A stretch of 64,000 nucleotides of DNA from Escherichia coli (GTDB lineage Bacteria; Pseudomonadota; Gammaproteobacteria; Enterobacterales; Enterobacteriaceae): assembly GCF_009931435.1 (NCBI RefSeq), contig NZ_CP043414.1; one strand, 5' to 3'. Below, piece after piece: positions 45,301 through 48,300 of this stretch (position 1 is the stretch's first letter; the number at the start of each line of letters is the position of its first letter). The position numbers were made by a program.

Positions 45301-48300
45301 GATGCCAGTAAGCCAGAAATAACGGATAACCATTCTTATGGACTGTGCCAGTTTGGTCGGTGGATTGATCATCTGGGGCCACTCGATAACGATGAATTAC
45401 CTTACGTTCGGCTAATGGATTCTGCCCATCAACATATGCATAACTGTGGTCGGGAATTAATGTTGGCTATTGTTGAAAATCACTGGCAGGACGCGCATTT
45501 CGACGCCTTTCAGGAAGGGTTGCTTTCTTTTACTGCGGCATTAACCGATTACAAAATTTATTTGCTGACGATCCGTAGCAATATGGATGTTTTGACGGGA
45601 TTGCCGGGTCGTCGGGTTCTTGATGAATCCTTTGATCATCAGTTACGCAACGCTGAGCCTCTGAATCTTTATTTAATGTTGTTGGATATTGACCGATTTA
45701 AATTGGTTAATGATACCTACGGGCATTTAATCGGCGATGTAGTATTACGCACCCTGGCAACTTACTTAGCCAGTTGGACGCGCGATTACGAAACGGTTTA
45801 TCGCTACGGGGGCGAAGAATTTATCATTATTGTCAAAGCGGCTAATGATGAAGAAGCATGTCGTGCAGGTATCAGAATTTGCCAGTTAGTCGATAACCAT
45901 GCCATCGCACACTCTGAAGGGCATATCAACATTACCGTGACAGCAGGTGTGAGTCGCGCATTTCCTGAAGAGCCGCTGGATGTGGTCATTGGAAGAGCGG
46001 ACCGGGCAATGTATGAGGGTAAGCAAACCGGAAGAAATCGCTGCATGTTTATTGACGAACAAAATGTGATTAACCGAGTTTAAGCTCCGTTTAACATTCA
46101 TTGAGAAAACTGATGCTACTGTGTCAACGATCCGTTATCAGTGCAGGAAAATGCCTGTTAGCGTAAAAGCAAAACACAAATCTATCCATGCAAGCATTCA
46201 CCGCCGGTTTACTGGCGGTTTTTTTTTCGCTGTCATAAAAATCAGGCCCCTTGTACACAGTTGTAACAAGGGGCCGGTTAGGTGAGGGATTATCTCCGTT
46301 CATTAGTCATCCCATTTGTGGCTGAAATACGCGGCCAGAAAACCAGAAAATAAAATTATTCCCAGTACGGCTATAAAAACATTCATATTACCCAGCATTA
46401 TTTGCCTCCGTTTATGGTGTGGTGTGTTTCCTCGCTTACCTTAATTTTCATCTCAATGAGAAAGATATTAGCAGAGGTAACCTAAACGAAGGCTGAATTA
46501 AATTTTTATTGTGTTCGACTTAAATCAACAAAGCGCGGGCTGCCCCCACGGTCTTGCACGAATCCCTTTTAACATCAGCACCCACGCAGCAATGATCACC
46601 AACGCTAAGATGATAAACAGCGAGGAAGGCGGCAGGCTGGTTAGCACTACGCCACTCACTAATGGGTTAATCGCCGCACCAAGCCAGCCTAAAGACTGAG
46701 CGGAAAAATAGCTGGCTTTCATTCCTGCCGGCGCAATATGGTCAATCAACATATACTCGCCCGGCGCATAAATGATTTCACCGACAGTAAATACCGCAGC
46801 TGACATACCCCACAATAGTAGGCTGTTGCCGGAAAAAATAAAACCAACCAGACCGATGACGAAACAGAGGGTGCCTGCTGTCATCAGCGCGCGGATGTTA
46901 GCCGGGTTAAGGCGGCGGCCCACGGAATATTGCAACGTAACTACCATGGCAGCATTAACCGGAAGAACAACCGCGACTACCTTTTCGGCAAAATCCCCAT
47001 CAGCAATCACCATCACATATTGTGAAATGCATGAAGCAAATGCGCCGCTAACAAAAGAAGCCAGAAAACCAGAGCAGGTAAACCACAACAGTGCTTTATC
47101 TTGTAATAAAACTTTCGGCGACCAGACACTGCCTGTTTCCGTGGCGATGATTTTCTCGCTGCGCTTTACCCAAATTTGAATGAAAAGCATGGGAAACGCG
47201 GAACAGATAGCAGCCAGCCAAAAAGGTAGATTGATGCTCTGCATGACCAACAGCGTGCCGAGCGGCGGACCGATGGTCCAGCCAATGTTTAACATGGTGT
47301 AGTTGATTGAGAAAATCTTCGTTTTGCTGGTGGACGAAAGATTGTCGGCAAACCAGGCTTTCAGCACGGTAGCAAAAACGGAGTAGGCGCAGTTAATAAG
47401 GGCAAAAAAGAGCACCACTAGCGTCACGTTATTCACTAAAGGAATGGCAATAAAACCGCTAGCGAAGGCGGTAATTGACAGTAACATATAGCGTTTCTTG
47501 TCGAACTTATCCGCCAGGATACCAAAACCGAGGCTAAAAACGACGCCAATAGTGAGCGCAATTGTCATCGCATAACCGATTAGATCGACACTCAGGCTGT
47601 ACTGGCGACTCAAGTAAATGGTCATAAATGGCAGCGTAGCGCCGCGTCCGATGGTTAATAACAACGACGAGGCAAGAAGGGCGCTGGTAGAGCGTCGTAG
47701 GGATAAGTTCATTTGTCTGTCCGGCAGTGCGTTTCGTTATGTTTTGTTTTAGAGATGTAAAGAAATAGCATGGCAAAAATCCGAAGTATAGCGACTTATT
47801 TGCGCATTAATGCCGTCGTAACCGGCGACTAACGAATCAACTGTTAAAGAAAAGTAAATTCAGCTAAGTTGATTGCTTACAAAAGATGAAATTCAGAGGC
47901 GGTAGAATGTCGCGAAAAGATGGGGTGTTGGCGCTACTGGTAGTGGTCGTATGGGGGCTAAATTTTGTGGTCATCAAAGTGGGGCTTCATAACATGCCAC
48001 CGCTGATGCTGGCCGGTTTGCGCTTTATGCTGGTCGCTTTTCCGGCCATCTTTTTTGTCGCACGACCGAAAGTACCACTGAATTTGCTGCTGGGGTATGG
48101 ATTAACCATCAGTTTTGCGCAGTTTGCCTTTCTGTTCTGTGCCATTAACTTTGGTATGCCAGCTGGGCTGGCCTCGCTTGTGTTACAGGCACAGGCGTTT
48201 TTTACTATTGTGCTCGGTGCGTTTACTTTTGGCGAACGGCTGCACGGTAAGCAACTGGCGGGGATCGCGTTAGCGATTTTTGGCGTACTGGTGTTAATCG

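Follow-up and report, generated by a model that had tools for sequence, protein, structure and literature searches.

The interval at positions 46084-46524 of the window (a 64,000-nucleotide stretch of the Escherichia coli contig NZ_CP043414.1) is the E. coli dgcZ/ydeE intergenic region in inverted orientation relative to K-12, and we are highly confident in identifying it as the canonical E. coli low-magnesium module, with mgrR and mgtS intact and mgtT frameshifted. The mgrR–mgtS–mgtT locus is already known in E. coli, and no result spoke against this identification. Of 5,426 complete E. coli genomes, 5,416 contain the 441-bp interval at 95-99.5% identity, which far exceeds what would be expected by chance. 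Base-by-base alignment to K-12 (NC_000913.3), in which mgtS (b4599), mgtT (b4775), and mgrR (b4698) are annotated within the interval, showed that the two sequences differ at 7 of 441 columns and that the seed, ARN motif, and stems of MgrR are unchanged. The first-pass annotation had placed MgrR and MgtS in this region, and both are present, but it overlooked the third annotated gene, mgtT, which shares bases with mgtS as well as with the terminator of MgrR. The K-12 alignment that it proposed as a check gave boundaries that correspond one-to-one apart from a single extra T in the MgrR tail, with the small ORF undisrupted. The coordinates of all features are collected in the table below.

Features of the dgcZ/ydeE intergenic region and its flanks, in window coordinates
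Feature	Coordinates	Strand	Basis or remark
dgcZ (diguanylate cyclase), 5' flank	45193-46083	+	ORF; start mapped from R32_14_1F RefSeq annotation
dgcZ stop codon	46081-46083	+	
mgrR promoter, putative PhoP-box-like direct repeat cGTTTA-N5-CATTGA	46088-46104	+	-41 to -25; conservation
mgrR -10 hexamer TACTGT (putative)	46117-46122	+	12 nt past PhoP box, 6 nt before TSS
Frameshift-made ORF, 59 aa	46124-46303	-	antisense to whole of mgrR
MgrR sRNA, 99 nt (K-12: 98 nt)	46129-46227	+	alignment to K-12 b4698; Rfam STnc560
MgrR 5' stem-loop	46133-46163	+	MFE and centroid fold; Rfam consensus structure
MgrR A-rich (ARN)5-type motif, Hfq distal face	46165-46180	+	identical to K-12 sequence; motif per PMC6239178
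MgrR pairing region (seed) U55-A68, UAUCCAUGCAAGCA, for eptB and ygdQ mRNAs	46183-46196	+	positions per PMC6239178; identical to K-12
mgtT, frameshifted	46198-46303	-	K-12 b4775 alignment; RefSeq "frameshifted" in KC-Dl-1, CFT073, CP032667
MgrR Rho-independent terminator	46200-46227	+	stem 46200-46219, U9 tail 46219-46227; terminator scan
Homopolymer, T9 on plus (MgrR U-tail), A9 on minus (mgtT Lys-Lys codons)	46219-46227	both	8 in K-12
mgtS intrinsic terminator, within mgtT ORF	46235-46275	-	hairpin 46275-46245 GGCCCCUUGU...ACAAGGGGCC, then UGAUUUUUAU
mgtS (yneM) CDS, 31 aa, M9I allele	46303-46398	-	ORF; K-12 b4599 alignment; HMMs
mgtS Shine-Dalgarno GGAGG	46405-46409	-	6 nt 5' of ATG; direct sequence reading
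mgtS promoter (putative PhoP box and -10)	46465-46499	-	block conserved across 34 loci; identical to K-12
mgtS -10 TAATAT	46470-46465	-	
mgtS putative PhoP box aATTCA-GCCTT-cGTTTA	46499-46483	-	12-nt spacer to -10
ydeE (MFS dipeptide exporter), flanking gene on far side	46525-47712	-	stop codon 46525-46527

The nearest genome over 12 kb is R32_14_1F, at 99.7% identity. The annotation of KC-Dl-1 suggested a deletion of ydeI and ydeJ in the window, which was rejected because R32_14_1F is colinear, with both genes intact. Among the RefSeq stretches fetched, rows for mgtS and mgtT were present for every genome inspected, and a row for the mgrR ncRNA for K-12 only.

The position of MgrR had been expected on the plus strand, in a segment ending at a terminator at 46201-46227. 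Alignment to K-12 mgrR (b4698; 1622914..1622817) bears this out, with the gene colinear with the window and one T added in the tail, and the terminator scan returned a stem directly followed by a T-run ending at the same base. A covariance-model search, as the earlier reading had recommended, matched Rfam family RF01407 (STnc560) at 46095-46309 on the plus strand with 275 bits (E = 6e-64; gathering score 55) over the full model, positions 1-214. The STnc560 model, at 214 nt, reaches past the sRNA at either end, since the family takes in the promoter and the 3' region of mgtS as well; the match boundaries are therefore not those of the sRNA. The window MgrR shares with its K-12 counterpart the intergenic region, orientation, promoter, 5' hairpin stems, ARN motif, seed, and terminator stem, and differs from it in a U4C change in the unpaired 5' end and in a U9 rather than U8 tail. 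According to PMC6239178, K-12 MgrR has 98 nt, its seed spans U55-A68, it contains an (ARN)5 motif, and its tail is U8.

Among MgrR orthologues the 5' hairpin is kept although its sequence turns over (median z -2.1), as judged by per-sequence folding, which was used since this region is too diverged for alignment; RNAalifold on a MAFFT alignment of 66 orthologues recovered the terminator and nothing else. The seed and the (ARN)5 motif are both unpaired in the centroid fold, and their columns are conserved in the 66 distinct orthologues, with the conservation of the seed columns coming in part from retrieval, as the 21-mer used (MgrR nt 48-68) covers them. The terminator stem has 8 pairs, 6 of them G-C, and 7 pairs are invariant or covarying in the same 66 sequences. 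Among genera, the tail is 7-9 U long, and U9 is common in genera other than Escherichia.

By analogy with K-12, MgrR would be an Hfq-dependent class II sRNA composed of a 5' hairpin, a single-stranded A-rich motif, a seed, and a terminator whose U-tail would bind the proximal face of Hfq. The seed would pair with the eptB and ygdQ mRNAs and repress both, which may in turn alter LPS modification and polymyxin sensitivity. Repression of eptB by MgrR, and the PhoP/Q dependence of MgrR, have been reported (PMC4651636). With the seed and Hfq motifs identical to those of K-12, the window MgrR is predicted to bind Hfq and repress eptB and ygdQ as well. It could be argued that the plus-strand element is merely the dgcZ 3' UTR with its terminator rather than an independent sRNA gene, given that dgcZ is on the same strand and its stop lies 46 nt before the MgrR 5' end. 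However, the space between the dgcZ stop and that 5' end contains a -10 hexamer and a PhoP-box-like repeat that is conserved, a separate ncRNA is annotated at mgrR in K-12, the sRNA is present in 67 species loci, and in Salmonella the RNA is discrete, so we consider this explanation very improbable.

In Salmonella, the roughly 90-nt, Hfq-bound STnc560 and the yneM transcript were described within one intergenic region (PMC2515195, Sittka et al. 2008). A literature search retrieved no paper naming both "MgrR" and "STnc560"; the equivalence of the two is drawn from that study together with the alignment. The window and the Salmonella Typhimurium STnc560/STnc570 locus have in common a convergent sRNA and yneM mRNA. 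In Salmonella, the two RNAs lie in the ydeI/ydeE intergenic region and are both Hfq-associated; in contrast to the window, dgcZ is not at the locus, the MgtS sequence differs (…LGSINLFIVVLG…), and the ORF in the mgtT frame is 41-60 aa long.

Both mgrR and mgtS carry a putative PhoP box, proposed on the basis of conservation across species, which told us more than a strict consensus scan. Across 64 Enterobacteriaceae loci, no upstream columns are more strongly conserved than those of the direct repeat in front of mgrR, which lies in a region identical to K-12. The sequence aGTTTA-N5-cGTTTA at 46077-46093, which overlaps this repeat, departs from the PhoP-box consensus at 2 positions. The mgrR -10 hexamer was placed relative to the K-12 mgrR 5' end, and its T-A...T columns are conserved. 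The mgtS box has 4 mismatches to KGTTTA-N5-KGTTTA and is absent from the scan of the window at up to 3 mismatches, which gave 182 matches over the whole window where about 139 were expected, barely above chance. A look-alike with 1 mismatch within the MgrR terminator (46206-46222) was judged to be a chance match, the loop sequence of the terminator not being conserved. The mgtS TSS is predicted near 46456. A simple promoter scan found a sigma-70 match at neither the mgrR nor the mgtS promoter, which is to be expected because PhoP-activated promoters lack a -35 element. By analogy with K-12 work, the interval would hold two convergent PhoQ/PhoP-activated transcription units, mgrR on the plus strand and mgtS on the minus strand. 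In the literature, mgrR and mgtS are convergent and induced by PhoQP, with MgtS stabilizing MgtA (10.1101/2021.06.30.450655); PhoQP dependence is reported for the mgrR promoter (PMC4651636; 10.1101/2021.06.30.450655) and for mgtS, which has a 58-nt 5' UTR (PMC11429745; 10.1101/2021.06.30.450655).

The 31-aa MgtS/YneM and its strong Shine-Dalgarno sequence, both read by hand from the minus strand in the first-pass annotation, were recovered as described. The ORF encodes MLGNMNVFIAVLGIILFSGFLAAYFSHKWDD and passed both curated MgtS models, NF033842 (80.9 bits, cut-off 35) and PF22865 (85.4 bits, cut-off 27), with matches covering residues 1-31 of 31. In comparison to K-12 MgtS (b4599), the length, the Shine-Dalgarno, the 5' UTR and promoter sequence, the terminator, and 30 of 31 residues are shared. 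We would like to note that the window peptide is not identical to that of K-12, as it carries M9I within the hydrophobic segment (position 46372 is T here and C in K-12). This allele is WP_000901364.1, "protein MgtS", which has an exact match in 2 of about 5,416 complete E. coli records. The change is conservative; isoleucine is native at this position in Kosakonia, Phytobacter, Pluralibacter, Salmonella, and E. whittamii. Codon-position diversity in 29 distinct orthologues (0.088/0.049/0.344 at positions 1/2/3) shows that mgtS is under strong coding selection, and the convergent arrangement of mgtS and mgrR in one intergenic region was seen in 35 of the 67 species loci.

The mgtS gene is expected, by analogy with K-12, to encode an inner-membrane protein that would raise the levels of the MgtA Mg2+ importer, in line with the membrane location, MgtA stabilization, and PhoQP induction reported for MgtS (PMC11429745; 10.1101/2021.06.30.450655). 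Its transcript would mostly stop at the strong hairpin terminator at 46275-46235. The predicted fold of this terminator has a z of -4.64, and its hairpin and T-run are conserved across the mgtS-bearing loci, with a hairpin regular expression matching 33 of 35.

In K-12, mgtT (b4775) is a 34-aa ORF that starts on the mgtS stop codon (TAATG), continues through the mgtS terminator, and has its end antisense to the terminator of MgrR; MgtT has been reported (10.1101/511675; PMC11429745). The window shares the TAATG start overlap and codons 1-28, which fit PF23498 (71.9 bits, cut-off 27; model positions 1-28 of 34 only). Past codon 28 the frame is lost to a +1 frameshift in the A9 run, which on the plus strand is 9 T where K-12 has 8. 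The full-length 34-aa MgtT ending in PPVNRR is consequently absent, and the ORF is instead lengthened to 59 aa. The window also differs from K-12 in V15T, which other strains have too, and in G25S, which results from a SNP at 46231, private to the window and 4 nt off the T-run. RefSeq marks the identical mgtT configuration as a frameshifted pseudogene, and S. enterica arizonae has a natural 60-aa ORF in the same frame as the 59-aa ORF. Because about 4% of complete E. coli genomes have 9 T and the mgtT ORF ranges, across Enterobacteriaceae, from 7 to 83 aa with almost no coding signature, the shift is probably either neutral or a homopolymer sequencing error.

The ninth T could be an error of homopolymer sequencing or assembly, with the true organism having an intact 34-aa mgtT, and the comparison with R32_14_1F is suggestive in this respect, as this genome shares the rare M9I with the window and yet has 8 T and an intact mgtT. 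Similarly, CP032667.1, an assembly of K-12 MG1655, has 9 T against 8 in the reference, with the 441 columns otherwise identical, and a laboratory derivative of O104:H4 has 10 T against 9 T in other O104:H4 assemblies. In complete E. coli genomes, however, about 4,866 tracts have 8 T, about 203 have 9 T, about 25 have 7 T, and 2 have 10 T (after correction for about 63 partial-coverage records among the raw matches at 99% or more), and 9 T follows lineage across many independent assemblies: one group contains CFT073, Nissle 1917 (two assemblies), ABU 83972, and ATCC 25922, and a second is made up of eight or more assemblies of O104:H4 or 55989. The 9-T allele is thus genuine in some strains and recurrent. 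The SNP at 46231, private to the window and close to the tract, additionally argues that the strain has truly diverged there. We regard a sequencing error as plausible though somewhat doubtful. Besides the lengths of 7, 8, 9, and 10 T, the tract is seen as an IS200C insertion site: about 1% of E. coli genomes look interrupted there, and FAH, the sole such strain inspected, has IS200C.

Whether or not the shift is real, it would be without functional meaning if mgtT is translated but its product is not under selection, and this is the explanation towards which we lean, if only slightly. Over the 35 species loci, the mgtT ORF is 7, 8, 9, 14, 24, 27, 30, 32, 34, 38, 41, 42, 45, 60, 66, or 83 aa long, and the 34-aa form is found in E. 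coli, E. albertii, and one Citrobacter locus with an unrelated C-terminus. Codon-position diversity in mgtT is 0.234/0.288/0.368, against the values given above for mgtS, and those of its N-terminal codons that are conserved fall on the sequence forming the 5' arm of the mgtS terminator. Within E. coli, the 7-, 9-, and 10-T alleles together amount to the same 4% or so, in addition to the apparent interruptions, and neither deletion nor overexpression of mgtT produced a phenotype (PMC11429745). Nevertheless, epitope-tagged MgtT is detectable and ribosome profiling indicates initiation at the mgtT start (10.1101/511675), mgtT has its own Pfam family (PF23498), about 91% of E. coli genomes have retained 8 T and the 34-aa ORF, and in every locus with mgtS the mgtT start codon overlaps the mgtS stop. 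We also considered that the MgrR U-tail/mgtT Lys tract is a slippage-prone switch of the mgtT frame that keeps MgrR functional, with mgtT translation being regulatory. Ribosomes crossing the mgtS terminator could then modulate termination and hence antisense transcription into mgrR. This would fit because the start codon is conserved while stops are free to fall before, inside, or beyond the hairpin, but we think it quite unlikely.

Beyond the accurate annotation of this locus, in which three known small genes are missed by ORF-length cut-offs and many pipelines, the significance of these findings is slight. MgrR and MgtS, linked to LPS modification with polymyxin sensitivity and to Mg2+ import, respectively, are present and intact in this strain. 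The window also illustrates a single homopolymer used by two antisense genes, in which a change in length frameshifts the small ORF and, with tails of 7-9 U occurring naturally, would be harmless to MgrR. The behavior of this tract provides context for judging whether mgtT is a true protein-coding gene.

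The gap extends from 46084 to 46524, with the plus-strand ORF ending at 46083 and the stop codon of the minus-strand ORF at 46525-46527. This 441-bp interval is present in 5,416 of 5,426 complete E. coli genomes at 95-99.5% identity, and the nearest genome over 12 kb is E. coli R32_14_1F (99.7%). Gene order is ordinary (...dcp-ydeJ-ydeI-dgcZ / mgrR-mgtT-mgtS / ydeE-eamA-marBAR...), and three features are annotated in the gap of the K-12 reference, NC_000913.3: mgtS (b4599), mgtT (b4775) and the ncRNA mgrR (b4698). The locus is already known, and its identification in the first-pass annotation as MgrR and the 31-aa MgtS is supported. 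Alignment to K-12 placed both genes, but a variant MgtS allele and a frameshifted third gene, mgtT, had been missed. Upstream of dgcZ, the window keeps both ydeJ and ydeI, whereas E. coli KC-Dl-1 (positions 1147-1355 of the compared stretch, L001) retains only two short pseudogene fragments in place of ydeJ and the greater part of ydeI.

Features of the interval, with the basis or sequence of each
Feature	Position	Strand	Basis or sequence
mgrR	46129-46227	+	base-by-base alignment to K-12
MgrR pairing region U55-A68	46183-46196	+	UAUCCAUGCAAGCA
mgtT	46198-46303	-	base-by-base alignment to K-12
mgtS	46303-46398	-	base-by-base alignment to K-12

K-12 mgrR aligned to the plus-strand segment proposed for it, and where a terminator had been placed at 46201-46227, the scan gave a stem of 8 pairs (46200-46219) with a T-run behind it that ends at 46227. 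A covariance-model search matched the Rfam family STnc560 at 46095-46309 (+), scoring 275 bits where the gathering score is 55. Because the 214-nt STnc560 model also takes in the mgrR promoter and the mgtS 3' region, its match limits are not those of the sRNA, which corrects the earlier account. In Salmonella, STnc560 was described as an RNA of ~90 nt, 29-fold Hfq-enriched, in the ydeI/ydeE intergenic region and convergent with a ~190-nt "yneM ORF" transcript (Sittka et al. 2008); this description and the K-12 alignment together identify the Rfam family as MgrR. Across the 64-kb window, RF02111 "IS009" is the sole further Rfam family to score at gathering level, at 34499-34697 (+) with 221 bits; coordinate transfer from R32_14_1F puts this match within the 5' portion of rspA, in the sense orientation of that coding sequence.

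In the published account of its functional parts, MgrR is an RNA of 98 nt that has an (ARN)5 motif at its centre, pairs through U55-A68 and ends in a U8 tail (PMC6239178). The motif and the pairing region are identical in the window and K-12, and mgrR differs from K-12 at two places only, U4C, an unpaired position at which most strains share the variant, and one extra U in the tail. A scan with a 21-mer from the MgrR seed, taking one genome per species, yielded 67 mgrR loci across Enterobacteriaceae. The 66 distinct orthologues show invariant or covarying pairs in the terminator stem (one pair is A-U in 40 and G-C in 20), and they keep a 5' hairpin despite near-complete sequence turnover (median z -2.1). 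A U9 tail is normal for MgrR, as T-tails of 7, 8 or 9 nt occur among orthologues, 8 and 9 both being common. The best match in the 64-kb window to the PhoP-box consensus KGTTTA-N5-KGTTTA, with one mismatch, lies inside the MgrR terminator at 46206-46222 (+) (GGTTTACTGGCGGTTTT); it is probably a chance match, as the loop is not conserved in other genera.

On the minus strand, the predicted 31-codon ORF with a strong SD was confirmed, with GGAGG 6 nt before the ATG. Its product, MLGNMNVFIAVLGIILFSGFLAAYFSHKWDD, scores 80.9 bits with NCBIfam equivalog NF033842 and 85.4 bits with Pfam PF22865, above the respective cut-offs of 35 and 27. It differs from K-12 by M9I, due to T instead of C at 46372. 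Just 2 of ~5,416 E. coli records, the closest genome among them, carry exactly this allele, for which RefSeq has a separate protein entry, WP_000901364.1 ("protein MgtS"). Since Ile is native at position 9 in Kosakonia, Phytobacter, Pluralibacter, Salmonella and E. whittamii, the change is conservative. Across genera, mgtS shows a textbook coding signature, with diversity of 0.088/0.049/0.344 at codon positions 1/2/3. Downstream, the hairpin 46275-46245 followed by UGAUUUUUAU (fold z = -4.64) is the mgtS terminator; it is conserved in mgtS-bearing loci, the hairpin search having matched 33 of 35.

Profiling of ribosomes stalled at initiation revealed MgtT, whose ORF overlaps the mgtS 3' end (10.1101/511675). 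It is co-transcribed with mgtS and PhoQP-dependent, its product is not membrane-bound, and neither deletion nor overexpression gives a phenotype (PMC11429745). The K-12 protein has 34 aa (MNGDNPSPNRPLVTVVYKGPDFYDGEKKPPVNRR), and the last 29 nt of the gene are antisense to the mgrR 3' end, so the T8 run of MgrR is AAA-AAA-AA in mgtT. With T9 in the window, alignment to K-12 shows the mgtT frame lost after codon 28; the shifted ORF runs on to 46124 (59 aa, antisense to all of mgrR), and the Pfam MgtT model matches it at positions 1-28 of 34 only. RefSeq flags the same configuration as "frameshifted" in KC-Dl-1, CFT073 and one MG1655 assembly. A private C-to-T at 46231, with a full-length match in no other complete genome, gives MgtT G25S.

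Exact-match searches with 88-91-nt queries carrying 7, 8, 9 or 10 T gave ~25, ~4,866, ~203 and 2 records, respectively; these counts are estimates, ~63 records with partial coverage only having been subtracted. The ninth T of the window could be a homopolymer error, as the run is 8 T long in its closest relative and differs between one MG1655 assembly and the reference; against this, real 9-T alleles exist, since 9 T recurs consistently in numerous independent assemblies, both in the CFT073/Nissle/ABU 83972 group and in O104:H4/55989. The MG1655 assembly in question, NZ_CP032667.1 (L008, T-run at ~352-360), has 9 T against 8 in NC_000913.3, which reflects slippage in the laboratory or an assembly error in the homopolymer, and its mgtT is a frameshifted pseudogene per RefSeq. 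The ~63 partial-match complete genomes appear to be interrupted at the tract. Strain FAH, the sole one inspected, has an IS200C inside the MgrR terminator T-run (330-1057 of L077; approximately window 46219-46228), which leaves MgrR with 7 T and truncates mgtT; the others may carry a similar interruption.

Across 35 species loci, an ATG overlapping the mgtS stop is always present, while the mgtT ORF ranges from 7 to 83 aa and stops ahead of, within or past the terminator hairpin. S. enterica arizonae has a natural 60-aa form in the same frame as the shifted ORF of the window. The pre-hairpin codons show a weak coding signature (diversity 0.234/0.288/0.368 at positions 1/2/3), and conservation of the "NRPLV" codons is confounded, as these double as the terminator 5' arm. 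In our reading, the MgtT peptide is under weak selection or none, and the frameshift is neutral. More speculatively, mgtT translation through the terminator hairpin could alter read-through antisense to mgrR.

The convergent mgrR/mgtS pairing was found in only 35 of the 67 species loci. Loci from Enterobacter, Lelliottia, Leclercia, Silvania and Huaxiibacter have mgrR but no mgtS within the fetched flanks (L010, L011, L018, L019, L022, L028, L033, L038, L040, L041, L043, L044, L049, L050, L052, L056, L059-L061, L063, L065, L071, L073 and L075, among others). Enterobacteriaceae bacterium RIT691 (L025) has two mgrR copies on the same strand, 1.6 kb apart (1438-1458 and 3032-3052, minus strand), with T8 and T9 tails and differing 5' hairpins, and just one adjoins mgtS. 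Enterobacterial mgrR/mgtS sequence was also retrieved from SMXE01000224.1 ("Caldithrix sp." MAG, L009), where MgtS and MgtT are identical to K-12 and the MgrR region matches it, and from CACSKA010000003.1 ("Chryseobacterium sp. 18061", L070); both are most likely contamination or mis-binning in public assemblies.

Upstream of mgrR, conservation peaks in the columns of cGTTTA-N5-CATTGA (46088-46104) and, after a 12-nt spacer, TACTGT (46117-46122); a match to the PhoP-box consensus that overlaps the repeat has 2 mismatches. The mgtS upstream region is identical to K-12, and its conserved aATTCA-GCCTT-cGTTTA repeat lies 12 nt before TAATAT, the same geometry as in the mgrR promoter. A block in the mgtS 5' UTR at 46426-46442 (-), AAGGTAAGCGAGGAAAC, is almost invariant across 34 species loci, its GAGG being 100% conserved. 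It sits ~28 nt upstream of the E. coli mgtS start codon; several genera have longer ORFs with an N-terminal extension (MEATMLGN..., MHAKIRRNEMLGS...) that begin near it, and the block may be their ribosome-binding site.

The locus comprises two convergent units with conserved promoters, sRNA architecture and mgtS all intact. By analogy with K-12 work, low Mg2+ would activate PhoQ/PhoP and induce both mgrR and mgtS; MgrR, held on Hfq via the ARN motif and U-tail, would pair through U55-A68 with the eptB and ygdQ mRNAs and repress them, and MgtS would enter the inner membrane and raise MgtA levels.
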